DNA of 32,000 nt from Candidatus Saccharimonadota bacterium (GCA_016432445.1 CP066689.1:60001-92000); one strand, 5' to 3'. Positions 2,014 to 29,155 are shown, counted from the stretch's first letter. Notes: generated from the letters alone by a model not told the origin. A program made the numbers and translations.

Positions 2014-3663
2014 CTACTCCTTCCTCTCAAAATAAGCATTTAGGATTTCCTTAGCAATTGGTGCAGCTATATCTGATCCTTGACCGCCTTCTTCAACTAA
2101 AACCGTTAATACTATCTCCGGATTTTCAGCCGGAGCAAATACAGTAAACCATGCATGAGGTTCTTTTGATAAAGCATGAGATTCAGCTGTACCGGTCTTG
2201 CAGGCGACGGGCGTCTCTACCATCTCGCCTTTGGAATTTGGAGCTTTGTAATTAAATAATGGCCAGCCAGTTCCGCCTGGAGTGCACGCTTGAATCATGC
2301 CTTGTTTGATGATATCCAATGTTTTTTTGGAAAGAGGTAATCTGTGGCAATTAGTTTTTTCATCCGTGTTTTTCAAAATTTGGGGTTTACACAAAGTACC
2401 TTTATTGGCAATCGCCTCAACCGCCAAGGCCATCTGAAGAGGCGTTACTAAAATATATCCTTGGCCAATGGATAAGTTATAAGTATCACCTAAATACCAC
2501 TGTTCTTTAAGTACATCTTCTTTCCAAAACGCCGAAGGGATTAAACCTTCTGATTCCTCAAACTCAATGCCTGTTTTTTTTCCTAGTCCAAATTTTTCCG
2601 CCCACGATTTTATAAGATCACTGCCAACTTTTTCGCCTACTTTGTAAAAGTAAATATCATTTGAGCGCGCAAGAGCTTTGACTACATTAAGCAATCCCTC
2701 TGTTTTTCCCCTTTCAAGGTAATACCAGTTACCAAACTCTATTGGTCCGGCTTTTATTTTCCCTGTATCCTCAATCATTGTTGCCTCGTCAATCTTTTTT
2801 TCCTCAAGGGCCGCTGCCGCCAAAACAAGTTTGAAAATTGAACCGGGAGGATAAGTCCCTTCTGTCGCCCTATTAAAAAGAGGTTTATCTTTATTATTAA
2901 TATATGCCTTTACTGACTCATTGTTTCCATCCTCAAAATCCTGAGGATTAAATGACGGCCAGGCTGCTAAAACCAGCACCTCTCCTGTTTGCGGTTTTAA
3001 TCCAACTACCGCCACTTTTTTATCCTTAACCTCAAATTTATCGTTATTGATAATTTCATAAGCTTTCTTCTGAAGCAGGCTGTCAAGCGACAGTTTTATG
3101 GTTTTACCATCTTCAGGCGCAATTACATTTAAAGTTTTTAATATTTTACCGCCAGCATCAACCTCAACCAATTTTTTCCCATTTTTGCCTCTTAACTCGC
3201 AGTCATAAATTTTTTCAATACTTTTTTTGCCCACTTTGTCACCTAAAGTCAGTTTGTTTAAACAAGGGTCAGATTTAATATCTTTCTCATCGGCAGTCTG
3301 CCGATAACCAACAAATGGAGCAATAATCTCTGGATCTTGATAAATACGAATTGATTTAAGGCGATCACCTTCCCCATGTAGGTCGGCCGCATAGTTTTGT
3401 GATAAAACCACACCTCGTCTGTCAACCAACATGCCTCGCTTAGGTTCAATAATCACTTCACGGATTCTATTACCCTCAGCTGCTCGTTTATAATATTCAC
3501 CTTTGACTACTGTTAAATGGAAAAGACGAAGCAGTAAAACAATAAAGAAAATTATTACGCCTCCAAAGTAAAGATATAAGAAAAAAGAAGAACCAAGTTT
3601 CTGCTCTTCCTGAAAATCCATCCCCCCCTGATGACCTTTTTTTATATACGGTATCTTATGCAT
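2014..3663 (-). CDS. mrdA: penicillin-binding protein 2 / class B transpeptidase
   Basis: N-terminal TM helix followed by VKGEYYKRAAEGNRIR. Has the transpeptidase motifs SxxK (GSIFK), SxN (SND) and KTG(T) (CKTGTAE). The start could instead be the internal Met at MDFQEE. Confidence 0.85.
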   Translation of the reverse strand: MHKIPYIKKGHQGGMDFQEEQKLGSSFFLYLYFGGVIIFFIVLLLRLFHLTVVKGEYYKRAAEGNRIREVIIEPKRGMLVDRRGVVLSQNYAADLHGEGDRLKSIRIYQDPEIIAPFVGYRQTADEKDIKSDPCLNKLTLGDKVGKKSIEKIYDCELRGKNGKKLVEVDAGGKILKTLNVIAPEDGKTIKLSLDSLLQKKAYEIINNDKFEVKDKKVAVVGLKPQTGEVLVLAAWPSFNPQDFEDGNNESVKAYINNKDKPLFNRATEGTYPPGSIFKLVLAAAALEEKKIDEATMIEDTGKIKAGPIEFGNWYYLERGKTEGLLNVVKALARSNDIYFYKVGEKVGSDLIKSWAEKFGLGKKTGIEFEESEGLIPSAFWKEDVLKEQWYLGDTYNLSIGQGYILVTPLQMALAVEAIANKGTLCKPQILKNTDEKTNCHRLPLSKKTLDIIKQGMIQACTPGGTGWPLFNYKAPNSKGEMVETPVACKTGTAESHALSKEPHAWFTVFAPAENPEIVLTVLVEEGGQGSDIAAPIAKEILNAYFERKE

Positions 3664-3667
3664 TTAA

Positions 3668-3762
3668 TCTAAATGTCAAAATCCAAATTTCAAATGTCAA
3701 ATATTTTTTAGAATTTAAGATTTTGGATTTGACCTGACATTTGAGCTTTGACATTTGGATTT
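3668..3762. repeat. heptamer-repeat hairpin element (AAATGTC / GACATTT word family)
   Basis: Left arm is aaatgtc|aaaatcc|aaatttc|aaatgtc|aaatatt (3671-3705). Inverted right arm is tttggat|ttgacct|gacattt|gagcttt|gacattt|ggattt. Lies between the VirB4-like stop and the PBP2 start. Confidence 0.8.
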
Positions 3763-3771
3763 ATCGTGTGT

Positions 3772-5526
3772 TTATTCTATCAAACTTTTTTCCTCCTCAG
3801 AAGCAATGACTTTAAATCCAACGTGAGACTGACCGGCAAAAAATAATCCTTCTCCAACCCCAGCCGATAACAAGAAATGCTTTTCTCCGCCTGTCAGGTA
3901 AAATGTTTCGGTGATCTTATCAACCGCCGCAGTTGACTGCTTTAGAATAATCTGCAAACTGGAATTAGTGATAATAGCTTTTCCTTCCTGCGTTGACAGA
4001 AAATCTTCAACGTCTTGAGTAATTGTAGTTAACCCCAGCAAATATTTGCGGGCGCGCTTGGCAAAATTAAAAAGATAATTGCCTGAGTCTTTATGTTTGA
4101 TTAAATACCACGCCTCATCAACAATTAAAACTCTTTTTTTCTTTTCACGCCTTACCTTATTCCAGATGTAATCTAAAACAACGTACATGGCCACCGGCCT
4201 TAAGTTTTCCTCCAAATCCCTAATACCAAAAACCGTAAATGGATTTTTAATATCAAAGTTTGATTGCTGATTAAAAATGCCTGAAGCTGAACCTTTAACG
4301 AATTTCTCCAGCCGGTCGCCCAGTTCTTTTGATTCTGGTGTTTCCATCCCCAATAATACTTTATAAAGATCCTCTAGAAGCGGCGGCTGCGTTTTAAAAG
4401 TCTCAGGATCCTGAGTGATGCCTTTTTGGCGGTAGGTCAAGACCAATGCCCGATCAAGAAGAGCATCCTGGGCCGGGACCAAATCACCCATAATTACCCT
4501 CATTAATGAATGCAGATTTAAGATTTTATTCTGCAGTTCATCAGGCTCAGGATCAGCGGTTGCTAAATCAAAAGGATTAATTTTATACTGAGATGCCCCT
4601 GAAAATTCTACAAACTCTCCACCCATTGAACCTGTTAATTTTTTATACTCATTCTCAGGGTCAATGATCATCACATCAGTACCCATCATCAGCAGTCTTG
4701 ACGACTCAAGTTTGACTAAAAAGCTTTTCCCTCCTCCTGATTTTCCTAAAATAACTGAGTTGGCATTCTCAAGAGTAAACCGGTCAAAGATAATAAGTGA
4801 TCCGTCATGCTGATTTAATCCATACATAATTCCTTCGTTTTTTGTAAGAGATGCCGTTGAAAAAGGAAAAGTCGTAGCTAAAGATGTTGTGTCCATATTG
4901 CGCCACACTGAAAGTTTGTCATAAAACATAGGTAAGGTTGATTTAAATCCTTCTTCCATCTGCAAAGTTGCTTGTTTAGCAATAATAAGAAGTGAGGCTA
5001 AACTTGAGTCAATCTGTTTGCTTAACTGATTTAACTCATCAAGACTATCAGCCGGAATTGTGATATAAAGTCCAAACTGAAAAAATCTTTCCGCTCCTTT
5101 GGCAAGTTCAGCCTGCAAGGCTAAAGCATCATCAAGGGCTACCTGTACTGTCGGGTCAACTACCTTCCCCGCCTTCATATCAGTTTCAATAGTCGCTTCC
5201 ATCTCGGCAATCTTGCGTTTCAAATCTTCAAGTACTGTTTTCGATTCGGTTGGATAAATATACATTGAGATATAAAGAGGATGATCAAAAGTAATAAGAG
5301 AATAAAGCCAGTTGGCTGAAACATAACGGGGGTAGCCTACGACATACAAAGTTTTGTAATATTTATCATCAATTTTAAGGTAGTTGAAATCAACTTCAAT
5401 AAAAGAAGGCGCAATAATATCTTTGATACTGACTGATCCTTTAGCCACTACCTCGGCCACGCTTTGAGATCCGCCCGCAACAGCCGAACCATTTGATTTT
5501 GTTTTTGGTTTAAATAAACCTAGCAT
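3772..5526 (-). CDS. VirB4/TrbE-like type IV secretion ATPase
   Basis: Walker A GKSGGGKSF and Walker B VLIVDEAW. N-terminal region is typical of the VirB4 family (YYKTLYVVGYPRYVSANWL). The track start at 5553 is a TTG inside the repeat element; the ATG at 5526 (MLGLFKPK) is preferred. Confidence 0.8.
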   Translation of the reverse strand: MLGLFKPKTKSNGSAVAGGSQSVAEVVAKGSVSIKDIIAPSFIEVDFNYLKIDDKYYKTLYVVGYPRYVSANWLYSLITFDHPLYISMYIYPTESKTVLEDLKRKIAEMEATIETDMKAGKVVDPTVQVALDDALALQAELAKGAERFFQFGLYITIPADSLDELNQLSKQIDSSLASLLIIAKQATLQMEEGFKSTLPMFYDKLSVWRNMDTTSLATTFPFSTASLTKNEGIMYGLNQHDGSLIIFDRFTLENANSVILGKSGGGKSFLVKLESSRLLMMGTDVMIIDPENEYKKLTGSMGGEFVEFSGASQYKINPFDLATADPEPDELQNKILNLHSLMRVIMGDLVPAQDALLDRALVLTYRQKGITQDPETFKTQPPLLEDLYKVLLGMETPESKELGDRLEKFVKGSASGIFNQQSNFDIKNPFTVFGIRDLEENLRPVAMYVVLDYIWNKVRREKKKRVLIVDEAWYLIKHKDSGNYLFNFAKRARKYLLGLTTITQDVEDFLSTQEGKAIITNSSLQIILKQSTAAVDKITETFYLTGGEKHFLLSAGVGEGLFFAGQSHVGFKVIASEEEKSLIE

Positions 5527-5530
5527 AATT

Positions 5531-5654
5531 AAATTTAAAAATCCAAATGTCAAAGCTTAAATGTCAAACCTGCCTGCCGGCAGGCAGGTCAAATCCAAAA
5601 TCTTAAATCCTAGAAAATGTTTGACATTTGAAATTTGGATTTTGACATTTAGAA
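5531..5654. repeat. heptamer-repeat hairpin element with central 22-nt GC palindrome
   Basis: AAATCCA/AAATGTC words, then acctgcctgccggcaggcaggt (5568-5589), then inverted TTTGACA/TTTGGAT words. Its last 22 nt (5633-5654) are identical to 13899-13920. Confidence 0.8.
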
Positions 5655-6319: not shown

Positions 6320-6386
6320 ATGATTTATGATTCACGATTTAAGATTCATGAATATTCTTGAATCCTGAATCATGAATCTTGAATCA
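6320..6386. repeat. heptamer-repeat hairpin element (GATTCA / TGAATC word family)
   Basis: Reads tgattta|tgattca|cgattta|agattca|tgaatat|tcttgaa|tcctgaa|tcatgaa|tcttgaa|tca, a perfect 7-nt phase. The two halves are reverse-complementary. Confidence 0.85.
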
Positions 6387-6394
6387 ATTTTGTT

Positions 6395-7297
6395 TTATAA
6401 CATTTCTTTCGAATAAAACTCAAAAGGATTGGGATTGTTTTCCTCAACCTTCAATTTCATTGTATCAAAAAAGTAACCGCCTTTTGGATCTTTTAGTTCA
6501 AATAAATACTCGCCTTCAGGCAGATTGTTATAGGTTGCAAAAACTCCGTGAGGATTAGTTTTTAATAATCTTAAAGTCTCGTTACTACCACCTTTTACAT
6601 AAATTAAAATACCGGGAAGCGGAATCTTTTTATTGTTTTTAACCAAACCAATAAAGAATGGCTGTTTGGGTTGACTCGAAGATACAGCCGGTACTGAAAG
6701 CGGCGTAGCATTAATAGTAGAGGCCGCCTGAGCCACAACAGGATTATCAGTTCTGGGTTGTGAGTTGTGAGTTGTGGGTTGTGAATTTTGTGTTGACTCA
6801 GAACCCACAACCCTTGACCCAGAACTATTTTGTAATTGATTCGTCGCTGTCTGCAATAATGTCTGCACTTGCTGTTTGTTATCGTTTGATGCTTGCTGGG
6901 GAGTTGAGCTAACAAGATATGCTGCTAGTTTTTCTTTGGACTCAATATGCGATATTATTTTATGAGGGTCTGAAACAAAATATAGATTTTGTAGAAAATA
7001 AAGAGGCTGATTATGTTTGTGATAAACATATTGAGTTGGAGATGTAAGTCTTTTTATAAGATTTTTAATCCAAACATCAAGAGGCCGATCATTTATCGGC
7101 ACCAAAGCTAAAGCTGCACCAAACAGTACAAAAATTACTCCTAAAATGATATTTAAATAAGGTATCGGAAAAATCATCCAGATAATAAAACCCACAGGAC
7201 CAAATACCAAAAAATACAAAAACTGCTTTAAGGTCATAAACCCAATTAGCTTAAACTCAAATGTAGTTATCTGACGAGGAACTGGATGCTGCTCCAT
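6395..7297 (-). CDS. PrgI-family-like membrane protein with C-terminal carboxypeptidase-regulatory-like beta domain
   Basis: The N-terminus MEQHPVPRQITTFEFKLIGFMTLKQF plus two TM helices matches my memory of PrgI-family proteins encoded next to VirB4. The C-terminus (GILIYVKGGSNETLRLLKTNPHGVFATYNNLPEGEYLFEL) looks like a CarboxypepD_reg fold. The start is moved to the ATG at 7297. Confidence 0.6.
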   Translation of the reverse strand: MEQHPVPRQITTFEFKLIGFMTLKQFLYFLVFGPVGFIIWMIFPIPYLNIILGVIFVLFGAALALVPINDRPLDVWIKNLIKRLTSPTQYVYHKHNQPLYFLQNLYFVSDPHKIISHIESKEKLAAYLVSSTPQQASNDNKQQVQTLLQTATNQLQNSSGSRVVGSESTQNSQPTTHNSQPRTDNPVVAQAASTINATPLSVPAVSSSQPKQPFFIGLVKNNKKIPLPGILIYVKGGSNETLRLLKTNPHGVFATYNNLPEGEYLFELKDPKGGYFFDTMKLKVEENNPNPFEFYSKEML

Positions 7298-7328: not shown

Positions 7329-7412
7329 TGATTTATGATTCAAGATTCAAGATTCACGAATAAAAATTAATAAACAAATAATGAAATTTCATGAATCATG
7401 AATCGTGAATCA
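7329..7412. repeat. heptamer-repeat hairpin element (GATTCA / TGAATC word family)
   Basis: Left arm tgattta|tgattca|agattca|agattca|cgaataa; right arm tcatgaa|tcatgaa|tcgtgaa|tca. The right-arm 24-mer at 7389-7412 recurs exactly at 17041-17064. Confidence 0.85.
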
Positions 7413-9752: not shown

Positions 9753-9913
9753 CTAATAAAACTTTTTAAACAGGATAAGAATAGTTATTTTTTGGCTTCC
9801 TGTCAATCTATATTAAGAATATCTTATTGTAACAATCTATATCAAATTTAGGCTTTGGAACAATATAATTAAAGAAGTGATGAGTTCTGGGTTCCGAGTT
9901 GTTGGTTTTGAGT

Positions 9914-10007
9914 AAAAAACACCTCGGCCTTCGGCAACTCCTCTTAATAAGAGGAGAATAATTCCCCTCTTGAAAGAGGGGTCCGGCCATTGGCCGGGGG
10001 GTGTTTT
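9914..10007. repeat. closed multi-hairpin element, copy 1 (fused to rny stop codon)
   Basis: Outer stem aaaacacc/ggtgtttt encloses hairpins ctcctct-taata-agaggag, cccctct-tgaa-agagggg and ccggcc-att-ggccgg. Same architecture as 12134-12263. Confidence 0.75.
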
Positions 10008-11475
10008 ATATTTTCGTTGTTGCCTCGGCTCGGGATTCACGGATGATGGTGATTTTAATTTGACCCGGGAAGACTTCAAATTTCTGTTCCAGTTCTTCCT
10101 TTATCTTAGCCGCCAGAACTGTCATATCATCATCGCTTATTTCATCCGCCTTAACCATAACTCTAAGTTCGCGTCCGGCCTGTAAGGCATAAGCATCTCT
10201 GACTCCTTTTTTAGTTTTGGCAACATCCTCAATTGTTTTGATTCTTTTTATGTATTCTTGCAAATCCTCATGTCTCGCTCCAGGTCTGCCCCCTGACACA
10301 GCGTCCGCAATATAAACTATTACCGCTTCAATTGAGGTAAAAGGAACATCTTCATGATGGGATGCCACACAGTCAATAACTTTTTGTGGGAATCGGTATT
10401 TTTTAACAAGTTCAACACCTAAATCAACATGCGAGCCCTCCTTATCGGCCACAATTTTACCGATATCGTGAAGTAAACAACCCAGTTTTACAATATTGAC
10501 ATCCGCTTTTAACTCATGAGCCAATGCTACTCCAATTCTTGTTTCTTCCAAAGTGTGAAGAATCATATTTTGGCCATATGAGTATCTGTATTTGAATCGG
10601 CCAAGCATCCGGGTAATCTCAGGGGGAAGGTTATAGATTCCCACCTTATGAACCATTTCCTCACCGGCTTTAAAGATTGCTTTTTCAATCTCCTCTTTTG
10701 TTTTATGAACTATCTCTTCAATACGCTGAGGTTGAATGCGCCCATCTTTGATTAATCTTTCCAAAGAAAGACGGGCAATTTCGCGACGGGTGGCATCAAA
10801 TGAAGAAATTTTAATTACACCTTCCTCTTCCAAATCAACATCAACTCCCGTGGCCAGTTCAAAAGCCCGGATGTTGCGTCCGTCTTTGCCGATAATCCTT
10901 CCTTTATAATCATCGCTGGGAAGAGAAACAACTGACAAAGTATACTCGGCCACATAATCAGTTGCCCCATAACGCATAGCATCAAGCAACATCTCTTTGG
11001 CTTTCTCATCTTTTGTTTGCTGTATCTCTTCTTCTGCCTGTTTTATTCTTTTGGCAACTTCCGCTTTTAATTTTTCTTCCCATCCTTGCAAAAGCAATGT
11101 CCGTGCTTGGTCTTTAGTCATTGCCGCTACTTTTTCAAGTTTTTGTAATATAGATTCCCTTTTCTCTTCAAGCTCCTTTTTAAGCTGTTCTGTCTGCTGT
11201 TTCTCCCTTTCTGCATTCTGTTTATCTTTATTCAGCTGATTTTCCTTATCTTCAAGCTGCTGTTCGCGGCGGGCTAATCTTTTGTCAACTTCTAAAGTAT
11301 CGGCAGTTAACTTGCGGGCTTCACGTTCTGCCTCTTGCTTGATCTTTAAAGCCTCTTCATTGGCTTTTAAAATAATCTCTTTTGATTCCTGCTTTACTTT
11401 TATAAGTTCATCCTGTTTCTCCTTTTCCTGTTCTTTTTTACTAAGAAATAGTTTTTTTAAAAATTGAGGTAACAT
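10006..11475 (-). CDS. rny: ribonuclease Y
   Basis: 489 aa. Has an N-terminal charged coiled coil, a KH domain (GRIIGKDGRNIRAFE) and an HD domain (LLHDIGK...ASHH). Confidence 0.92.
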   Translation of the reverse strand: MLPQFLKKLFLSKKEQEKEKQDELIKVKQESKEIILKANEEALKIKQEAEREARKLTADTLEVDKRLARREQQLEDKENQLNKDKQNAEREKQQTEQLKKELEEKRESILQKLEKVAAMTKDQARTLLLQGWEEKLKAEVAKRIKQAEEEIQQTKDEKAKEMLLDAMRYGATDYVAEYTLSVVSLPSDDYKGRIIGKDGRNIRAFELATGVDVDLEEEGVIKISSFDATRREIARLSLERLIKDGRIQPQRIEEIVHKTKEEIEKAIFKAGEEMVHKVGIYNLPPEITRMLGRFKYRYSYGQNMILHTLEETRIGVALAHELKADVNIVKLGCLLHDIGKIVADKEGSHVDLGVELVKKYRFPQKVIDCVASHHEDVPFTSIEAVIVYIADAVSGGRPGARHEDLQEYIKRIKTIEDVAKTKKGVRDAYALQAGRELRVMVKADEISDDDMTVLAAKIKEELEQKFEVFPGQIKITIIRESRAEATTKI

Positions 11476-11532
11476 AATCCATTTTTTTCTTGAAGAAAAA
11501 ATACGTTTATGGATACACTTATTTATTAAGTC

Positions 11533-11630
11533 AAAACGGGTGACGCGAGTTCAGGGCTCCCATTAGCATGGACCCCGACGTTTTGTCGGGGGAATCCTGA
11601 TGGGAAAAAACGAGCGGCAGGCCCCGTTTC
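11533..11630. ncRNA. candidate structured RNA / rny leader element (unclassified)
   Basis: GC-rich island in an otherwise AT-rich 280-bp ORF-free spacer. Nested pairings: aaacggg/cccgttt (outer), cccat/atggg, and ccccgac-5nt-gtcgggg (apical, 11573-11591). I could not match it to a known RNA family. Confidence 0.3.
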
Positions 11631-11755
11631 ATTCCTAATGATAAGAAGACGATTTAATAAATTTGTATTCATTCAATTCCCTCTTCAAGGAATTTTTAAT
11701 ATTGTCCCTATTTTACTCCCTCACTCAAAAATCTTCAAATGAATTTCGAGCGGAA

Positions 11756-12133
11756 CTAATCTCTGTTGGATGTTTTATGCATAGTAATCCAGTTTTTAAT
11801 AACAACAATTACTCCATCCATGTCATTTTTAACTTGATCGTTAGTAAAACGTAAAATATTTATTCCCAACTTATAAAGCTGATCTTGTCTCTTCTCATCG
11901 TAATTACCTTTTAACTCATGACTATCTCCATCAATCTCGATGGCTAGTTTTAGTAAATTGTTGTAAAAATCAACAATATAATTTCCTAAAGGTTTCTGCC
12001 GGTTAAAATCGATACCCAAAACCTGTTTATTTTTCAACCTTTTCCATAAAATAATTTCTGCAACTGTACTATTTTTTCTTAAATGAGAAGCAATCTTTTT
12101 TAGTTTTGGATTATAAGGTATTGTATATGACAT
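11756..12133 (-). CDS. DUF559 (Vsr-like restriction-endonuclease-fold) domain protein
   Basis: 125 aa with the pattern LRKNSTVAEIILWKRLKNKQ..G..F.RQKP.G.YIVDFY......AIEIDGDSH......D..R...L...G...LRF.N..V typical of DUF559. Confidence 0.8.
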   Translation of the reverse strand: MSYTIPYNPKLKKIASHLRKNSTVAEIILWKRLKNKQVLGIDFNRQKPLGNYIVDFYNNLLKLAIEIDGDSHELKGNYDEKRQDQLYKLGINILRFTNDQVKNDMDGVIVVIKNWITMHKTSNRD

Positions 12134-12263
12134 AAAAACACCCCCCGCCTAAATGCGAGATCTTTTGGCGGGGTACTCCTCTTGGAAAGAGGAGACATAC
12201 AAACACTCCTTAGATTCCCCTCTTCGCAAGAGGGGTGGCCAGCTGAGCTGGCCGGGGTGTTTT
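12134..12263. repeat. closed multi-hairpin element, copy 2 (between recX stop and DUF559 start)
   Basis: Outer stem aaaacacccc/ggggtgtttt encloses ccccgcc...ggcgggg, ctcctct-tggaa-agaggag, cccctct-tcgca-agagggg and ggccagc-tga-gctggcc. Confidence 0.75.
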
Positions 12264-12744
12264 ATCCTTCCTCCATCTCTTCAATCACTTTTTTAGCAAT
12301 TGAAAAAGAAAAACCGCGGCGCATAAGAAACTGAGCGGCTTTTTCAAAACGGGTTTTTTTATCGAAATGATTAAAGTGAAACCAGCGGTTATGAAGAGCT
12401 TGTTTAGCCAGATCTTCTTGATTTGAAGGATTTTCTGTAAAGAATTCATCAATTATATCTTTCTCCACGCCTGCCTTTAGGAGTTCCTGTTTCAAAGCAA
12501 ACTCGCTTTTGGGTTTAACAATGTTTCTTGTAACTACAAAAGACTCAACAAATTTTTTATCATTTATGAGTCCTTCTTCTTCAAGTAAAGAAAGCGCCTC
12601 TTCAATCACTTCTGGCGACCAATGGTAAAACTTCTCAGATTTTTTACTAAGATAAGAGACAACCTCTTTTCGCGTGCGGGGCCGGAATTTAAGATAAAAA
12701 TAAGCGCGGTTAAGAGCTTTTTGAACGTGATCTTGCCTGTTCAT
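12262..12744 (-). CDS. recX: recombination regulator RecX
   Basis: 160 aa directly downstream of recA. Helical-repeat sequence typical of RecX ([26 protein letters not shown]...). Overlaps the recA 3' end by 35 nt. Confidence 0.8.
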
Positions 12745-13753: not shown

Positions 13754-13840
13754 AAAAATTTATGAAATTATAATGTCACCATTATGCCTAAACATCTCAA
13801 AAAATTCAATAGATTATAAGCCACAAAGTTGAGTAAATAA

Positions 13841-13920
13841 ATTCAAATATCAAATAAATATTTGGATTTTAGATTTTGGATTTGATTTGAAATTTGACAT
13901 TTGGATTTTGACATTTAGAA
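13841..13920. repeat. heptamer-repeat hairpin element (TTGGATT/TGACATT word family)
   Basis: attcaaatatcaaataaata is followed by tttggattttagattttggatttgatttgaaatttgacatttggattttgacatttagaa. The terminal 22-mer is identical to 5633-5654 and overlaps the stop codon of the UbiA-family gene. Confidence 0.75.
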
Positions 13921-14835
13921 GATATAGATAAGTCCTACCATAATCAATCCCCAAAGCAGGATGGTAATAATTAAAGGTTTGTCATTGGTAATAATTTTCT
14001 CCGGCAGTTCTCCTTGTTCTTTTTGATAAAGAAGCTGGGCATAGCGGGCAATCCCATAAACTACTAAAGGAATTGAGATCATCAGCCATTTTCTAGCCTC
14101 AAATCCAGGGAGAATTTTGGAGATCGTATCAGAAAATACAGTAGTAACCTGCGGCGGTTTTTCAAAATAAGTGTAAAAGGAAAATGAAATTATAGTGGCT
14201 GTAGCAAAGGTGTTGGTTAAAAAATCAAGCAAATGCTCTTTATACTCAACTAATGACAATCTTGTTTCTGTCCCCCTCCCCACCAGCTCCGCATGCCTTT
14301 TAACAGTGGCCATGAAAAGCGATACGAAAAAAATGGTAAGCAAAAGCCAGATTGGAATATGATATCCTGAGACAACTTCACCAGCAAAAGTGCGGATCAT
14401 AAAAGAAAATGAGATGGTAAAAATATCTATTATCGGGTGTTTTTTAAGATAAAGAGAATAAAAAAAATGAATCAGAATAAATACGAAAGATAACAGGAAA
14501 AATGAAACGGAAAAAAGAATAGAGACTATTAAAGAAGCAAACGTCAATAGGAAAACTGTGAAAGTCGCCTCAGCAATAGTTACCTCGCCCGAAGCAATCG
14601 GCCGCTGTTTTTTTACCGGATGCTTTTTATCTAACGGATAATCAATAATGTCGTTTAAAACGTAAGAAGCCGAAGATAAAAAACAAAAAACAAAAAACGC
14701 AAAAAGAGATTTTGAAAAAAGATCAACATCAAAAAGTTTTCCTGAAAAAACAATGGCCACAAAAATGACTAAGTTTTTTATCCATTGATTAACCCGAAGC
14801 ATCCGCATTAATACAAAGATTCTTTCTTTTTTCAT
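13915..14835 (-). CDS. UbiA-family prenyltransferase (decaprenyl-phosphate phosphoribosyltransferase-like)
   Basis: Polytopic membrane protein with the NDIIDYPLDKKHP Asp-rich motif and KQRPIASGEV. Confidence 0.75.
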   Translation of the reverse strand: MKKERIFVLMRMLRVNQWIKNLVIFVAIVFSGKLFDVDLFSKSLFAFFVFCFLSSASYVLNDIIDYPLDKKHPVKKQRPIASGEVTIAEATFTVFLLTFASLIVSILFSVSFFLLSFVFILIHFFYSLYLKKHPIIDIFTISFSFMIRTFAGEVVSGYHIPIWLLLTIFFVSLFMATVKRHAELVGRGTETRLSLVEYKEHLLDFLTNTFATATIISFSFYTYFEKPPQVTTVFSDTISKILPGFEARKWLMISIPLVVYGIARYAQLLYQKEQGELPEKIITNDKPLIITILLWGLIMVGLIYIF

Positions 14836-15358: not shown

Positions 15359-15967
15359 ATGAATATTGATTTTAAGAACGTTTCTAAACATTATGCTCCT
15401 CGTACTCATGAAAAAATGCAGGAAGTTTTAATGAATCCTCAAGGAGTTGGACCAGAAATTCATTATTACATGATAAGAGGTGGTAAAAATCAAAAAAACA
15501 TTACTATTTGGGAACCGGGAACAATAAGTGGCGAATATATTAAAACTTACGGACACTATCATTTAGGACAGCTTGATGAAACTTACTGGATCACTTTTGG
15601 ACAAGGAATCGCCGTATTGCAAAAATTAGCTCTTGATGAAAAAGGGGAGATGATCCCTGATGTTGTTGAAGAGTTTAAAGTCATAAAGGTTAAACCTGGA
15701 GATAGTATTTATATGCCACCAGGTTATGGACATCTCTTTGCTAATGTTGGAGAAACATATTTTGTGACAGCTGATAACAGCCCTGTTAATTTCGGGGATG
15801 TTGATCCTTCAGGAATGCCCGGTCATGCCGATTATGAACCTGTAAAAAAAATGCAAGGCTTTGCCTATTACGTGGTTGAACATGAAGGCAAACCAGCTCT
15901 TAAAAAAAATCTAAAATATAAAGAAATTAAAAAGGAAGATCTTGGAGGTTTGTCTGTCATTGTCTGA
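15359..15967 (+). CDS. cupin-type (archaeal-type) glucose-6-phosphate isomerase
   Basis: PGTISGEYIKTYGHYH....DETYW and PGDSIYMPPGYGHLFANVGE align by eye with Pyrococcus cPGI (PGKVGKEFFFTKGHFH...AEVY; PGTVVYVPPYWAHRTVNIGD). Confidence 0.7.
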   Translation: MNIDFKNVSKHYAPRTHEKMQEVLMNPQGVGPEIHYYMIRGGKNQKNITIWEPGTISGEYIKTYGHYHLGQLDETYWITFGQGIAVLQKLALDEKGEMIPDVVEEFKVIKVKPGDSIYMPPGYGHLFANVGETYFVTADNSPVNFGDVDPSGMPGHADYEPVKKMQGFAYYVVEHEGKPALKKNLKYKEIKKEDLGGLSVIV

Positions 15968-15994
15968 GATCTTCGATATTCGATTTTCGATATT
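15968..15994. repeat. heptamer-repeat arm (TTCGAT words), left inverted repeat of the four-helix-bundle cassette
   Basis: cttcgat|attcgat|tttcgat|attagat, starting right after the PGI stop codon. The inverted partner is at 16421-16452. Confidence 0.8.
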
Positions 15995-16361
15995 AGATTT
16001 TAGTTTTAAGATATCTAATAAGTCCACTAATCATCATGCCGATTTTATTAGCTTCATTAAGTAATTCTATAGAAATATGCTCATCAATGTATTTTAAATC
16101 TTTCGCAAGAATTATCTGATACTTTGTTTCTGCTAAAGAACTTTTAGACATGTATAAAAATCGCACAAAATCTTTTTTACTACCTCGTTCGTTTCCTTCT
16201 ACTATATTTGTAGAAATGGAAGCTGACGATCTTCGGATTTGATCCACTAATGAATATTTTTCATTCATTGGAAAATATTTTGTTATTTCATATATTTTTA
16301 ATACTAATTTATGTGAACGATTCCAAACTTCCAATTTTTCAAACTGATTATTAAAATTCAT
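15993..16361 (-). CDS. four-helix-bundle protein (23S rRNA intervening-sequence protein family, TIGR02436-like)
   Basis: 122 aa. LEVWNRSHKLVLKIYEITKYFP..EKYSLVDQIRRSSASISTNIVEG..R.SKKDFVRFLYMSKSSLAETKYQIILAKDLKYI matches the family consensus over its full length. Confidence 0.9.
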   Translation of the reverse strand: MNFNNQFEKLEVWNRSHKLVLKIYEITKYFPMNEKYSLVDQIRRSSASISTNIVEGNERGSKKDFVRFLYMSKSSLAETKYQIILAKDLKYIDEHISIELLNEANKIGMMISGLIRYLKTKI

Positions 16362-16420
16362 AAAATGATCATCTCATATCTAAAAATAATATCAGTCGCT
16401 TATCGTCAACAATATTAAGT

Positions 16421-16452
16421 AAATCGAACGTCGAATATCGAAAATCGATGAT
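16421..16452. repeat. heptamer-repeat arm (ATCGA words), right inverted repeat of the four-helix-bundle cassette
   Basis: aaatcga|acgtcga|atatcga|aaatcga|tgatc. This is the reverse-complement word set of 15968-15994. Confidence 0.8.
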
Positions 16453-16462
16453 CAGGAGCTTT

Positions 16463-17761
16463 TTAGAAGGATCTACTTACTTCTTTTCCTAACTTCACCG
16501 CATAATTTGTTCCCCGGTCATAAGGATAGGTCATGTCGAGATTGGCAATGAAAAAGTTTTTGACGGGAGTTTCAAATGTTGGTTTATTTGCTACAAACTC
16601 TTTATCATAAATAGGTTGTGCCCAAGGAGCTTTGAAAAAAAAGTTCTGAGTTATGCGTTCTGAGTATTGCGGATTTATTTGTTTTAAATAAGGAAGATAA
16701 AATTTAACGGCTTCTTCTCCATCCATTTTTAATCTTTTATCATCTCCATCTAAATAATTGGCCACGTAAAGGATATGTTTATCGTTATAATATTTTTTAT
16801 TCATAAAATTAGTATGTTGAACTAAACCCATGATGGGAATATTTTTATCACAGACATTAAGCCAGTAGGTCTTTTCAAGCAATGGCTTTTCTGACTGCAA
16901 AATAAGAGTTGTTGCATGAAGATATTTTATTTTTTTTAAGTTTGATAAATAATTTTCCGGAAAAATATTTTCTGCTAATTTAACTAAAACCGGCGTCGGC
17001 AAGGTAGAAATTACCGCATCATATTTTTCCTCATGAATCATGAATCGTGAATCATGAATCAATATTTCCCCTATTTGACATCCTTTCTTAATCACTACTC
17101 CCAAATCTTGATTAACCTTTTCCAAATAATTAATAAATGTTTGAAAACCACCTTTAATATAACCTAAATCCTTGGTTCTTTTTTTAATTCTGGCCCAAAA
17201 AAAAGAGGTTAGAATAATTCCCGCGTATTTACCGAACTTTTTCCGAAAGAGTTCCTGCCACAGTACATTCCAAGCTTCATCCCCCATGGTTTTCTTTAGA
17301 AACTCCTCAGCCGTTTGCTTCTCATAAAGATTAAAAAAAGGAGAAAATTTAAGAAAAGCCAAAATAAAAGCCGCTCTTATCTTTGATGGCCAAGAGAGAA
17401 GAGGGAACTTCAAAAAATCTTGCGGAGTATCTAAGGGAAATATGCGGGAATTAGATTTTCGATATTCGATTTTCGAAGATCGACTATCGAACATCGGATA
17501 AAGAGAGGCTGTCTCGGGTGACTCGAAAACGACATCATTAAACCCAACCTCTTTGGCAAAATTCAAGATATCCATATCATTAGAGAAGAGGTGATGGTAA
17601 GTCCTTTCCAAATACCAACTCCATTTTTCATCTTTAAACCCTGAAGCTAATCCTCCTAAGATTTCTTCTTTTTCAAAAAGCGTTACCTTGTGACCTTTTT
17701 TAGCAAGATAGTAAGCGGCCGTTAATCCCGTAAACCCTCCACCCAAAATTGCAATTTGCAT
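16463..17761 (-). CDS. NAD(P)/FAD-dependent oxidoreductase (amine-oxidase / protoporphyrinogen-oxidase-like fold)
   Basis: N-terminal dinucleotide-binding motif IAILGGGFTGLTAAYYLAKKGHKVTLFEKEEILGGLA. Contains two in-frame heptamer-repeat segments (see findings). Confidence 0.75.
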   Translation of the reverse strand: MQIAILGGGFTGLTAAYYLAKKGHKVTLFEKEEILGGLASGFKDEKWSWYLERTYHHLFSNDMDILNFAKEVGFNDVVFESPETASLYPMFDSRSSKIEYRKSNSRIFPLDTPQDFLKFPLLSWPSKIRAAFILAFLKFSPFFNLYEKQTAEEFLKKTMGDEAWNVLWQELFRKKFGKYAGIILTSFFWARIKKRTKDLGYIKGGFQTFINYLEKVNQDLGVVIKKGCQIGEILIHDSRFMIHEEKYDAVISTLPTPVLVKLAENIFPENYLSNLKKIKYLHATTLILQSEKPLLEKTYWLNVCDKNIPIMGLVQHTNFMNKKYYNDKHILYVANYLDGDDKRLKMDGEEAVKFYLPYLKQINPQYSERITQNFFFKAPWAQPIYDKEFVANKPTFETPVKNFFIANLDMTYPYDRGTNYAVKLGKEVSRSF

Positions 17762-18109: not shown

Positions 18110-18131
18110 ACCTGCCTGCCGGCAGGCAGGT
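18110..18131. terminator. 22-nt perfect GC palindrome, candidate bidirectional terminator hairpin
   Basis: acctgcctgccggcaggcaggt lies between convergent gene ends (17787..18080 plus strand, 18157..19149 minus strand). There is no clear U-tract. Confidence 0.4.
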
Positions 18132-18156
18132 AATTAACGACATTTCCCCGCATGAA

Positions 18157-24042: not shown

Positions 24043-24062
24043 CCTGCCTGCCGGCAGGCAGG
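24043..24062. terminator. 20-nt perfect GC palindrome flanked by CTACGAA heptamers, candidate terminator of the nrdJ-pduO unit
   Basis: cctgcctgccggcaggcagg lies 9 nt after the adenosyltransferase stop. Flanking words are ctacgaa | ccacgaa|ctaccaa|ctacgaa. Confidence 0.45.
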
Positions 24063-24087
24063 CCACGAACTACCAACTACGAACATG

Positions 24088-24116: not shown

Positions 24117-24138
24117 AAGAAAGCATTTTTAAAAATTA

Positions 24139-24308
24139 GGCTTGGTTTAACCACAATAAGGTTAATTGGGAATACGGTGTGAATCCGTAACTGTGCCGCA
24201 GCGGTAAAAGTTAGTCGCGAGTCGTTAGTCATGAGTCATTAAAAATGACTCTCAAGACTAAAGACTCAAGTCTCAAGACTAAACTTGAGTCCGAAGACCG
24301 ACCAAGCT
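24139..24308 (+). promoter_or_regulatory. cobalamin (B12) riboswitch
   Basis: The core GGUUAAUUGGGAAUACGGUGUGAAUCCGUAACUGUGCCGCAGCGGUAAAAG parallels E. coli btuB GUUAAUAGGGAAUCCAGUGCGAAUCUGGAGCUGACGCGCAGCGGUAAGG. The 3' B12-box GAGUCCGAAGACCGACC fits rAGYCMGgAgaCCkGCc. The P1 halves are ggcttggt / accaagc. Confidence 0.85.
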
Positions 24309-24332
24309 CTCGACCCCGAGCAGGGATTATTT

Positions 24333-25640
24333 ATGTTATCGGCCGAAATCTGTAAGCCTTCATCATCTTTTCTTCCTAGCAGAAATGCTACAGAAAGAAC
24401 AAATACAATCGACGTTCCATTAAAAGAAGAGTCGATTTTTAATTATTACTCAATCACCAACGAAGCCAAATTCCTCAAAGAAAACCCTCAATTGCCTCAC
24501 GAGCAAAAAGAATATTATCTTAAAGAAAACGTTTTAAGATTCTTGGGGGAGTTTGCCGGAAAAGTTCCTTACACTAAAATAACCTACATTCTAAGAGATG
24601 ATGGATTATATTACGGAGATCTAAAAGCCATGGACAATTATCGCCAGACTGCTATAATGCCTGAAGCCACCGATCGGGAAAAAGCCGAAGGGGAAGGATT
24701 TGAAAAAGTTGAGGAAGGATTACTTCAACCGGCAAACACCGCTTATTGGATTTCTCCTCCTAAGATTGCCAATTATGGATTTGTTTTCTACTTCACTAAA
24801 GAACTCCAATACGATAAAAAATTAAAAGGTTACAAGGTTACTGAATATATTTTAAGATATCCTGAAAAATTGGAAGATGTTTCAAAAAGTAACCAAATTG
24901 CTTATGGAATAGAAAGTAATGGAAATAACAAACATTACCGGAAAAACGCCAATGATTTTATCAGAGACCCTTTTTTTGATTTATCCAATCCAAATTCAAA
25001 TCTTAAAAAGATATTAAATCTTGTTGATGTTGATGATGAAAAGATATTTCAATCCCAACAGTTTGAAAAACAGGTTGAAGAAAAACTTTCAGGATTAATT
25101 GATCAATACACCAAAACTATTATGATACTATCAAAATATGAACCTTATGAACCAGAATATAATCAAATGTGTAACCACGCTGAAAGTTTACTAACTACTA
25201 TTTACAACAGTGCACGCGTCATTAAGCATATTGTTGAAGAACCTGAAAATCACAATACTGAGAGTTCTGTTTTTGAAAGAGCCAGCAATAAAGAACTTAT
25301 GGCTTACTTTTCACAAAAAAAAGCCACCGTAACTGGAGGAGGCAGTTGTCCTGTTACAAACAAAAGAAATCAACCTGCCTATTTATCATCTTTTAACGTT
25401 TATGCCCTAATGAATACCGGAAATCCCATTGAAAGTTTTATTCATGATCTTGATGAACTTTTTTCAGATAATAAATTTTTAGAATCTGATAGCGAAAACG
25501 AACACTATGAAGATTATGAATGTCCTCATTGCCACGAAACATTGTCAGGTGAAAAGAAAAATGATCCAAGTTCCTGGAGAAAAACATGCGACCACTGTGG
25601 TGAAGATGTCAGATGTAATAAAGAAACGTTAGCTGCCTAA
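24333..25640 (+). CDS. hypothetical protein with C-terminal CxxC...CxxC zinc ribbon, riboswitch-controlled
   Basis: Long ORF with no TM segment or signal peptide. The C-terminus is YECPHCHETLSGEKKNDPSSWRKTCDHCGEDVRC. The track start (TTG 24285) lies inside the riboswitch, so the in-frame ATG at 24333 is preferred. No family recognised. Confidence 0.6.
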   Translation: MLSAEICKPSSSFLPSRNATERTNTIDVPLKEESIFNYYSITNEAKFLKENPQLPHEQKEYYLKENVLRFLGEFAGKVPYTKITYILRDDGLYYGDLKAMDNYRQTAIMPEATDREKAEGEGFEKVEEGLLQPANTAYWISPPKIANYGFVFYFTKELQYDKKLKGYKVTEYILRYPEKLEDVSKSNQIAYGIESNGNNKHYRKNANDFIRDPFFDLSNPNSNLKKILNLVDVDDEKIFQSQQFEKQVEEKLSGLIDQYTKTIMILSKYEPYEPEYNQMCNHAESLLTTIYNSARVIKHIVEEPENHNTESSVFERASNKELMAYFSQKKATVTGGGSCPVTNKRNQPAYLSSFNVYALMNTGNPIESFIHDLDELFSDNKFLESDSENEHYEDYECPHCHETLSGEKKNDPSSWRKTCDHCGEDVRCNKETLAA

Positions 25641-28625: not shown

Positions 28626-29057
28626 ATGAAACTTAAAATCTATACCGACGGAGGGTCGTTAAATAATCCTGGGGAAGCGGCTATAGCTTACGTTATCTAT
28701 CTCAATGATGAATGTGTTTTAAAATTCTCTAAAAGGATTGGAGTCGCCACTAATAATTTTGCCGAATACACGGCCTTAATTGAAGCTTTAACAGCAGCTA
28801 AAGATTTTATTAAAAAATATCCAATCAAATCAATCAATGTTTTTTCCGACTCTCAACTCATGGTAAGCCAGCTATGCGGCCTTTACAAGATTAAAAACTC
28901 ATCAATAAGAGATCTTATTATGAATATAAGAGTACTTGAAGGAGAGATAAATTTACCAATAGTCTACGCTCACATTCTAAGAGAAAAAAACCAAATAGCA
29001 GATTCACTAGTTAAACTAGCTTTTAAATCCAAATATCAAATTTCAAATGACAAATGA
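28626..29057 (+). CDS. rnhA: ribonuclease HI family protein
   Basis: DEDD-type motifs: IYTDGGS (D), NNFAEYTALIEAL (E), VFSDSQL (D), NQIADSL (D). The last ~11 codons are encoded by the heptamer repeat. Confidence 0.8.
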   Translation: MKLKIYTDGGSLNNPGEAAIAYVIYLNDECVLKFSKRIGVATNNFAEYTALIEALTAAKDFIKKYPIKSINVFSDSQLMVSQLCGLYKIKNSSIRDLIMNIRVLEGEINLPIVYAHILREKNQIADSLVKLAFKSKYQISNDK

Positions 29058-29155
29058 AATCCAAAGTTTAAAATCTAAATTTAAAAATTTTTTTCACTCG
29101 TTATTTGGATTTGGGATTTAATTTGACATTTGTTATTTTGATTTTGACATTTGAG
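29024..29155. repeat. heptamer-repeat hairpin element (AAATCCA/AATGACA vs TTTGACA/TTGGATT words) between convergent rnhA and dnaN
   Basis: aaatcca|aatatca|aatttca|aatgaca|aatgaaa|tccaaag ... ttatttg|gatttgg|gatttaa|tttgaca|tttgtta|ttttgat|tttgaca|tttgag. Confidence 0.75.

Follow-up and report, generated by a model that had tools for sequence, protein, structure and literature searches.

A 32 kb window of DNA from a Candidatus Saccharimonadota bacterium (GCA_016432445.1, CP066689.1:60001-92000; 35% G+C), by which the whole stretch analysed is meant, carries on its minus strand a gene set comprising recA, recX, a DUF559 nuclease gene, rny and hup, all five identities being confirmed by Pfam. 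Its DUF559 and RNase Y proteins are identical to those of a Candidatus Roizmanbacteria genome, to which the window is assigned. Two copies of a closed multi-hairpin element lie in it, copy 1 at the stop codon of rny and copy 2 between recX and the DUF559 gene. A preliminary description, made from the sequence of the window, read them as a structured element, either mobile or acting as RNA; they very probably belong to the BoxC/PIT/TM family of triplex-motif repeats (PMC4666352) and form neither a new kind of element nor a new RNA class. Moreover, DUF559 genes were found beside such repeats, in a defined orientation, in many phyla. On balance, the explanation favoured here is that the copies are inserted triplex-motif repeats coupled to DUF559 as a partner nuclease. 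The further step, that DUF559 acts on the repeats, is put forward tentatively.

Each copy can be read with high confidence as a repeat at the DNA level, made of two intrastrand-triplex motifs in inverted orientation. On either strand, a motif consists of a perfect all-pyrimidine/all-purine hairpin, a second loop and a G/T-rich box, and this box mirrors the purine arm, with G opposite G and T or A opposite A, which is the antiparallel purine-motif rule for a third strand. In the window, the box GGGGTGTT answers to the arm AAGAGGGG and the box GAGGTGTT to the arm AAGAGGAG; all eight triads are matched in three of the motifs and seven of eight in the minus-strand motif of copy 2. The same rule explains why the inner hairpins differ from each other at one position (CTCC vs CCCC), and why the outer-stem halves of copy 1 differ at the corresponding position (CACCTC vs CACCCC). 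A hairpin scan of the 32 kb (stem of at least 6 bp with at least 3 G/C) returned four homopyrimidine/homopurine hairpins, all of them 8 bp long and all in copies 1 and 2.

The main observations of the preliminary description were confirmed on the sequence, namely the common architecture at 9914-10007 and 12134-12263 with shared inner stems and different loops, the 2-nucleotide (nt) overlap with both stop codons, and the DUF559 start codon touching copy 2. Copy 1 has the outer halves AAAAAACACCTC and GGGGTGTTTT around three hairpins, and copy 2 the halves AAAAACACCCCCC and GGGGTGTTTT around four, the first of which is CCCCGCC(17 nt)GGCGGGG. The inner hairpins CTCCTCTT/AAGAGGAG and CCCCTCTT/AAGAGGGG are common to both copies, and 71% of the alignment columns between the copies are identical. 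The minus-strand TAA codons of rny (10006-10008) and recX (12262-12264) each reach 2 nt into the element; the AA of the rny codon is the complement of the end of the plus-strand box of copy 1. At their stop sides both copies read GGGGTGTTTTAT, the full ends being AAAACACC.../...GGTGTTTT. The minus-strand box of copy 1 is matched as GAGGTGT at a loop length of 12 (loop 2, 9926-9937), while the minus-strand loop 2 of copy 2 (12145-12175, 31 nt) contains the hairpin CCCCGCC..GGCGGGG. The internal third-strand-like box in the spacer of copy 2 has a counterpart in locus L216, which carries the closest relative of the window DUF559 gene.

Three structural proposals of the same description gave way to other explanations. 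The outer stem is a by-product of the two mirror-repeat boxes and appears because these boxes, one on each strand of the inverted motifs, are mutually complementary. The pairing of Shine-Dalgarno-like with anti-Shine-Dalgarno-like arms in the inner stems follows from the requirement that the arms be all-purine and all-pyrimidine. The cloverleaf of local hairpins is about 10-15 kcal/mol weaker than the predicted minimum-energy fold, which is a rod held together by pairing of CCCCUCUU in one inner hairpin with AAGAGGAG in the other. Folding of either copy is far more stable than that of its shuffles (z -6.21 for copy 1 and -6.32 for copy 2; 0 of 200 shuffles equal). Searches against Rfam at gathering and permissive thresholds gave no family and only chance-level matches (E >1), and a tRNA/tmRNA scan yielded nothing relevant. 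A terminator consensus scan flags the sub-hairpins together with a T run; this T run is itself part of the mirror box.

The mirror rule was examined beyond the window with explicit hairpin-plus-mirror searches and non-cognate controls. A covariance model was unsuited to this purpose, because mirror symmetry lies beyond such models and the loop lengths are very variable. A perfect cognate 7-nt box was found at most 50 nt downstream in 436 of 958 strand-specific hairpins, compared with 66 for the non-cognate pattern, and 405 of 479 hairpins had a box on at least one strand. Box and arm change together: AAGAGGGG is accompanied by GGGGWGWW, GGAGGGG by GGGGTGG, AAGGGGG by GGGGGWW and AGGGGGG by GGGGGGW. 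The commonest second loop or spacer measures 3 nt, the same length as the TTA of the E. coli motif. Of 436 motifs, 218 stand in inverted pairs; 146 motifs are solo and 152 are in tandem, and in these the box follows its hairpin without a complementary partner. In addition, one genome per species was scanned for two homopyrimidine/homopurine hairpins in tandem, and at least 118 loci were recovered from Nitrospirota, Patescibacteria, Gammaproteobacteria, Dehalococcoidia, Omnitrophota and others. The gammaproteobacterial loci come from isolates of Cysteiniphilum and Actinobacillus, and several loci per genome are often present. The hairpins of the scanned loci are enclosed or followed by boxes like GGGGTGTT, GGGGAGATTT, GGGGAGTT and GGGGTGATT.

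Repeats of the BoxC/PIT/TM type were reportedly studied in E. coli, Synechocystis and H. influenzae by Bergler in 1992, by Bachellier in 1999 and by Hoyne and Maher in 2000. The motif was noticed in E. coli as BoxC, renamed PIT elements and later surveyed as TM/TMECO (Holder et al., 2015; PMC4666352). Folding of single-stranded motif DNA into a triplex has been demonstrated in vitro, by circular dichroism and nuclear magnetic resonance, for the E. coli motif only, and E. coli K-12 contains 23 copies, often in inverted pairs, with an excess of rearrangement at motif loci (PMC4666352). In that survey, the motifs showed no link to the function of flanking genes and had no mobility genes nearby (Holder et al., 2015; PMC4666352). 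The window copies resemble these repeats in combining a homopyrimidine/homopurine hairpin with a third, G-rich block that mirrors it on that strand, in having stems more conserved than loops, and in being intergenic, multi-copy and often arranged as inverted pairs, with kinds of stem that recur across phyla. They differ in their second loops, which are G+C hairpins of 12-31 nt instead of the 3-nt TTA or CCG, in the T-rich third strand (GGGGTGTT) in a 35% G+C genome of the candidate phyla radiation (CPR), in A-rich ends that lie on TAA stop codons, and in the coupling to a DUF559 gene, which is absent from PMC4666352.

The long second loops deserve separate comment. The first loops of the window motifs are 2-3 nt long, and the second loops, of 12, 16, 18 and 31 nt, fold as hairpins and fall outside the short-loop range of the ITxF definition (1-6 nt). 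Other lineages, Cysteiniphilum and Flavobacterium among them, also have second loops of this long hairpin type. When 93 distinct long second loops were folded, 57 reached -3 kcal/mol or better and 71 beat their own shuffles, and compensatory variants such as TGGCC..GGCC, TGCCC..GGGC and TGTCC..GGAC across the family bear out the earlier proposal that the variable G+C hairpins are conserved in structure and not in sequence. In the window lineage, loop 2 has expanded into a small G+C hairpin. The window element is thus a lineage variant of a known repeat, distinguished by long hairpin second loops, T-rich third strands and stop-touching ends.

The association of DUF559 genes with triplex motifs is oriented and extends across phyla, and we regard it as real with very little reservation. 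Among 80 metagenomic DUF559 loci, picked solely by DUF559 peptide patterns, 69 have hairpins within about 260 nt of the gene; the tie between DUF559 and the element that had been suggested from the window alone is therefore upheld as a strong cross-phylum association. Hairpin density reaches 3.37 per kb in the DUF559 flanks and only 0.19 per kb elsewhere in these loci. Of the 80 loci, 42 have the strict motif in the expected orientation upstream, on the coding strand, another count of 42 applies to the downstream side, where the motif is on the opposite strand, and 59 have it on at least one side. The third-strand boxes of the bracketing motifs point at the gene, and the upstream box, typically a few to tens of nucleotides from the ATG, doubles as the ribosome-binding site. 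From the end of the upstream box to the start codon, heuristically chosen, the median distance is 29.5 nt (range -2 to 95); from the stop codon to the complement of the downstream box it is 2 nt, and the open reading frame (ORF) often runs into the box. The hairpin loops upstream and downstream are reverse complements, and the DUF559 gene thus sits between inverted repeats. Often, the flanking motif is itself part of a full closed pair.

The association is also seen from the side of the motifs. In the 118 motif-selected loci, DUF559 is directly adjacent in five, from Gottesmanbacteria, two Saccharibacteria, Nitrospirota and Rheinheimera; among the matches listed, it is the only genuine family that recurs beside motifs across lineages, and no transposase or integrase is a recurrent neighbour. 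The type of stem also tracks the protein, since in 44 of 59 comparisons the most similar DUF559 protein was accompanied by an identical stem type, where 27% would be expected, a difference that 0 of 2000 permutations reached and that could come from co-evolution or from common ancestry. Named bacteria provide further examples. Motif TMECO number 9 of Holder et al. lies beside E. coli ycjD, and an N. gonorrhoeae DUF559 gene, a homologue of NGO0050 (3HRL), is flanked by motifs, as are DUF559 genes of Picosynechococcus and Sphingomonas. On viral contigs, short-loop motifs are common, and the window-type motif was absent from those searched; full-length viral DUF559 homologues often have such hairpins, and distant partial matches are mostly without them. 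No published report of a DUF559-motif association was found in the literature covered, which leaves out most subscription journals, and the general association appears to be the new part of the finding.

Several of these loci show individual features. In N. gonorrhoeae, a repeat of about 120 bp occurs in direct orientation on both sides of the DUF559 gene (L310:150-330 and 960-1090), and each copy holds the triplex motif CTCTCTCCC-tgt-GGGAGAGAG, cta, GAGAGAGGG. In another organism (L298:2140-3150), a DUF559 gene with motifs of the hairpin-type second loop is inserted in an rnf operon between rnfG and rnfE. Among 5,426 complete E. coli genomes, the match to K-12 fabI-ycjD-sapF breaks in the fabI-ycjD intergenic region in about 2,000. 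In Nissle, the one such genome examined, the eefRABC efflux operon takes the place of ycjD and its motifs (L297:9241-17260 vs K-12 L208:7040-7420). A precise boundary of ycjD gain or loss was sought in this comparison, which proved uninformative, the K-12/Nissle homology ending about 27 nt from the motif.

The DUF559 gene of the window starts immediately 3' of GGGGGGTGTTTTT (ATG, 12133-12131) and has neither a promoter nor a spacer of its own, so that this box of copy 2 is the sole Shine-Dalgarno-like sequence before it. The gene must share a transcript with recX, and copy 2 can therefore hold no efficient terminator if the gene is expressed. The protein matches PDB entry 3HRL (E 8.4e-15). Its structural model (predicted local distance difference test, pLDDT, 88) has a template-modelling (TM) score of 0.86 to 3HRL and of 0.79 to 3R3P, the catalytic domain of I-Bth0305I, and the fold is more distant from Vsr than from these two. 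Residues D55, E66, D68 and H72, the predicted catalytic residues, are invariant among 29 DUF559 sequences. The window protein is of one fold and clade with Vsr (1VSR), I-Bth0305I (3R3P) and NGO0050 (3HRL) (PMC3424549), and conserved acidic and histidine catalytic residues are a further likeness. Unlike vsr with its dcm, the window gene lacks an adjacent cytosine methyltransferase gene, and unlike that of I-Bth0305I it stands outside any intron. The closest homologue, with 72% identity, is found in L216 in the order closed pair, DUF559, closed pair, both pairs being of the window subfamily. The window gene is of the repeat-bracketed type with copy 2 as its upstream partner, and copy 1 is solo.

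Comparison with relatives, whose RNase Y is 79-85% identical, shows that copy 1 is an insertion. In the relatives, too, the genes are arranged as recA-recX-(variable)-rny-(variable)-hup-DUF5667-S1. In the comparison of orthologous rny-hup junctions that had been called for, the element is absent from L209, L211 and L213; unrelated sequence follows the rny stop, and the native stop is kept (ATATAA, ATTTAA and ATATAG). Copy 1 is accordingly a dispersed repeat and not a conserved 3' untranslated region (UTR), as the reading of a mobile element had anticipated. Copies beyond the window, likewise predicted, were found in L210, L216 and L099, which carry the same subfamily. The fusion to stop codons stood only in part. 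Within this Roizmanbacteria subfamily, the A-rich end (ATAAAACACC) overlaps or abuts a TAA stop in five of six copies, and in the five copies whose upstream gene is known, the element is always oriented the same way to that gene; in the whole family, only 11 of 142 motifs lie at -1 to +6 nt from a stop, a count that rules out stop-codon fusion as a family-wide trait.

The L210 site (3830-4030) lies away from the rny-hup junction. There, a closed pair of the same subfamily, with an extra central hairpin, follows a 97-codon ORF and overlaps its TAA. Behind the element stands ATGTCTTAC, coding for Met-Ser-Tyr, with which the window DUF559 protein also begins; tblastn found no DUF559 remnant there beyond ATGTCTTAC. 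The site may be the footprint of a lost DUF559 gene. The slot between recX and rny is variable as well. It holds DUF559 and the repeat in the window (11476-12261), a DUF87 ATPase gene and two small ORFs in L211 (771-3500), and greA in the opposite orientation in L213 (2822-3500). The 280 nt between DUF559 and rny were considered as the downstream half of the unit and rejected, being present in relatives without DUF559.

A separate observation concerns assemblies. Several independent short-read contigs of the same organism (Logan, L119-L127) stop about 27 nt past the rny stop, inside copy 1, and many DUF559 proteins in databases lie on contigs shorter than 2 kb. Evidently, the repeats break assemblies.

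How a DUF559 nuclease and these repeats might work together can be outlined by analogy with REP elements and RAYT, from which we infer a partnership of nuclease and repeat for DUF559. It is possible, if still somewhat doubtful, that DUF559 proteins, including YcjD and the 3HRL protein, are the dedicated nucleases of BoxC/PIT/TM repeats, spreading or maintaining them and causing rearrangements. In such a scheme, DUF559 would recognise the motif either as a folded hairpin or triplex or in its duplex form and would nick it; the nick would provoke copying or recombination, and the repeats would thereby spread and persist. The enzyme could serve many copies in trans, in the way that RAYT serves REP elements, and the presence of many repeats for a single gene is compatible with this. 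Nicking could account for the genome instability reported at motif loci. Circular permutation converts the solo form (box-hairpin-hairpin-box) into the gene-bearing form (hairpin-box-gene-box-hairpin), a relation that would be expected of a hypothetical circular or tandem intermediate.

The parallel with REP/BIME (REPIN) and RAYT (TnpA-REP) rests on many short structured extragenic repeats alongside one or few nuclease genes, on a nuclease gene flanked by inverted repeats (at the level of the DUF559 family; in the window, on the upstream side only), and on inverted repeat doublets whose lineage-specific variants track the protein. DUF559 is a Vsr-like PD-(D/E)xK enzyme and not an HUH Y1 transposase, and the resemblance is therefore functional at most and does not amount to membership; in addition, the repeats have a triplex (mirror) architecture and lack a GTAG guide.

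A number of points weigh against the coupling of repeats and nuclease described above. The link between DUF559 and the motifs is a genomic association, and the agreement of stem type with protein similarity could equally mirror shared host ancestry. In the window itself, a motif pair is present on just one side of DUF559. No consistent direct repeat, as a target-site duplication would leave, was found at three sites of insertion (both window copies and L210); as there is neither such a duplication nor a precise pair of empty and filled sites, mobility is deduced from presence and absence in diverged relatives. Nissle lacks ycjD at the locus, yet the query matches elsewhere. Among 120 motif-bearing viral-contig loci (1.0 Mb), none has DUF559, and motifs thus persist without a local gene, an absence compatible with action in trans. 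In vivo, Holder et al. detected no stable triplex (PMC4666352), and one Caulobacter DUF559-domain protein has been proposed to serve T:G mismatch repair (PMC12907096).

The serious alternative, although we consider it unlikely, is that DUF559 is a free-standing selfish endonuclease of the homing type for which the repeats are only landing pads or recognition sites, spread by other means. DUF559 is indeed a single small ORF in operons or in the gaps that separate conserved genes (recX|rny, rnfG|rnfE, dnaN|adenine glycosylase and E. coli sapF|fabI), the recX-rny gap carries different cargo in relatives, and the nearest characterised fold is that of the homing endonuclease I-Bth0305I. Identical DUF559 proteins in more than one context would have hinted at transposition, but each was found in one context only, and the gene is thus not multi-copy like an insertion sequence. 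Such an enzyme leaves unexplained the two-sided inverted repeats with matching loops and the excess of repeats over genes (23 to 1 in E. coli; PMC4666352), and no empty cognate site that retains its recognition sequence was identified. Conventional transposition offers another account, in which the element is an ordinary miniature inverted-repeat transposable element (MITE) moved by a transposase elsewhere and its adjacency to DUF559 marks an insertion hotspot. The terminal inverted repeats (ATAAAACACC...GGTGTTTTAT), the insertion polymorphism among relatives, the many copies in many genomes and the breaks of assemblies at the element would all suit a MITE. In common with Correia/NEMIS, ERIC, RUP and BOX, MITEs that fold as hairpins at gene ends, the window repeat is a small non-coding intergenic insertion bounded by inverted repeats and co-transcribed with its neighbours. 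It differs from them in showing no definable TA or other target duplication and no matching transposase, and in having ends set by the mirror-repeat rule. Its terminal sequence co-varies with the internal hairpin by that rule and not with a transposase family, no target-site duplication can be defined, no recurrent transposase lies near the motifs here or in the survey of Holder et al. (PMC4666352), and a hotspot would not explain the oriented bracketing of DUF559 (59-69 of 80 loci). A MITE is for these reasons improbable.

The preliminary description had also considered an RNA element that couples termination to translation of downstream cargo, that is, a structured 3' UTR, terminator or stabiliser. 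The great stability of the folds speaks for it, as do the location just 3' of both rny and recX, the U runs behind the outer stem, the G-rich box as the only Shine-Dalgarno-like sequence before the DUF559 ATG, and the common orientation of the five subfamily copies to their upstream genes. Nevertheless, the conserved constraint is the mirror symmetry of purine arm and box rather than Watson-Crick pairing; this is the rule of a DNA triplex, and purine-motif triplexes are not formed by RNA (PMC4666352). The motifs moreover occur solo, in tandem and on either strand (also PMC4666352), PIT elements have no promoter or terminator activity in E. coli (as cited in PMC4666352), expression of DUF559 requires read-through of copy 2, and Rfam contains no match. 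Such an RNA role has, in our judgement, little chance of being the explanation. Least probable by far is an integron-like cassette, with the closed imperfect palindrome acting as an attC site that adjoins the stop of the preceding ORF and the start of the following one. The cassette-like order of L216 (closed element, DUF559, closed element), the stop codon and ATG that touch the element in the window, and the two arrangements as circular permutations of one unit recall a cassette array. The window ends, ATAAAAC and GTTTTAT, contain no RYYYAAC/GTTRRRY core sites, no integrase is present in the window or recurrent as a neighbour, and the flanking rny and recX are core housekeeping genes in conserved synteny; with core sites and integrase absent, the attC reading was rejected. 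The inserted triplex-motif repeat with DUF559 as its partner nuclease remains the favoured explanation.

Positions and properties of the repeat copies, their parts and the adjoining genes in the window
Feature	Position	Strand	Remarks
Copy 1, closed inverted pair of triplex motifs	9914..10007	.	directly after rny stop codon
Copy 1 third-strand box GAGGTGTT(TTTT)	9914..9925	-	mirror of AAGAGGAG, 8/8 triads
Copy 1 minus-strand motif, hairpin CTCCTCTT-aat-AAGAGGAG	9938..9956	-	hairpin scan
Copy 1 plus-strand motif, hairpin CCCCTCTT-ga-AAGAGGGG	9964..9981	+	hairpin scan
Copy 1 loop 2, 16 nt	9982..9997	+	folds as hairpin ccggcc-att-ggccgg (9983-9997)
Copy 1 third-strand box GGGGTGTT(TT)	9998..10007	+	mirror of AAGAGGGG, 8/8 triads
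rny (RNase Y)	10006..11475	-	native stop abuts copy 1
rny promoter and leader	11476..11755	-	conserved; outside the DUF559/repeat unit
DUF559 (Vsr-like PD-(D/E)xK) nuclease gene, 125 amino acids	11756..12133	-	Pfam PF04480, E 1.8e-31
Copy 2, closed inverted pair of triplex motifs	12134..12263	.	between recX stop and DUF559 start
Copy 2 third-strand box GGGGGGTGTTTTT	12134..12146	-	best register GGGGTGTT, 7/8 triads
Copy 2 minus-strand motif, hairpin CTCCTCTT-gga-AAGAGGAG	12176..12194	-	hairpin scan
Internal third-strand-like box GGAGTGTT, copy 2 spacer	12202..12209	-	7/8 triads for minus-strand CCCCTCTT hairpin
Copy 2 plus-strand motif, hairpin CCCCTCTT-cgc-AAGAGGGG	12217..12235	+	hairpin scan
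Copy 2 loop 2, 18 nt	12236..12253	+	hairpin ggccagc-tga-gctggcc, -12.2 kcal/mol
Copy 2 third-strand box GGGGTGTT(TT)	12254..12263	+	8/8 triads; overlaps recX TAA 12262-12264
recX	12262..12744	-	stop codon overlaps copy 2

Within copy 2, the spacer at 12196-12211 (minus strand) reads AAGGAG, 7 nt and then the ATG of a 32-codon ORF, which traverses the repeat and overlaps the DUF559 start in another frame. This ORF is probably incidental, its AAGGAG belonging to the internal third-strand-like box. Next to the DUF559 gene, the 5' leader of rny (11528-11628, minus strand) contains nested hairpins, AAACGGG...CCCGTTT around CCCAT../..ATGGG and CCCCGAC/GTCGGGG, with counterparts at L209:2622-2722 and L211:3366-3462. 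Eight base pairs are kept through two-sided changes in these three Roizmanbacteria sequences, and Rfam holds no match. The leader may be a cis-regulatory RNA for RNase Y.

Other repeats are found in the window as well. Tandem heptamers (TGAATCA, GATTTTG, GAGTTGT and similar) fill many of its intergenic regions and recur as inverted arms that flank genes. They occupy 3668-3763, 5585-5653, 6321-6391, 6732-6826, 7329-7412 and 9880-9913, and further on 13839-13932, 15963-16012, 16420-16453, 17031-17066 and 29024-29152. Arms of 69 nt, 96% complementary, stand on both sides of the ORF at 3772-5553, and copy 1 is followed by one such arm. A perfect palindrome of 20 nt, CCTGCCTGCCGGCAGGCAGG, occurs three times after gene ends (5571-5590, 18113-18132 and 24045-24064), and the near-identical CCTGCCTGTCGGCAGGCAGG lies 3' of a Gottesmanbacteria DUF559 gene (L082, about 3020-3045). 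This palindrome is a second repeat or terminator family, distinct from the triplex motifs. Finally, a cobalamin riboswitch (Rfam RF00174, 64.2 bits) is located at 24126-24320 on the plus strand, its 3' end reaching past the start codon of an ORF (24285-25640).

BoxC/PIT/TM repeats, known since 1992, are present in hundreds of genomes. To our knowledge, no function, origin or mobilising enzyme has been established for them, and we know of almost no function assigned within DUF559, a very large nuclease family whose structure has been solved. The oriented, cross-phylum coupling of the two merges these questions into one testable hypothesis, and the association may point to the long-missing partner enzyme of the repeats. 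A model organism is at hand in E. coli, with ycjD and 23 motifs. If the hypothesis is true, DUF559 and its repeats would form a second symbiosis of nuclease and repeat, mechanistically distinct from REP/RAYT and shared by hosts as different as CPR bacteria, enterobacteria and cyanobacteria. The breaks in assemblies and the variable junctions of small CPR genomes would then be explained as well, and an enzyme of the Vsr fold that reads a non-B DNA structure would be among the forces shaping bacterial genomes.

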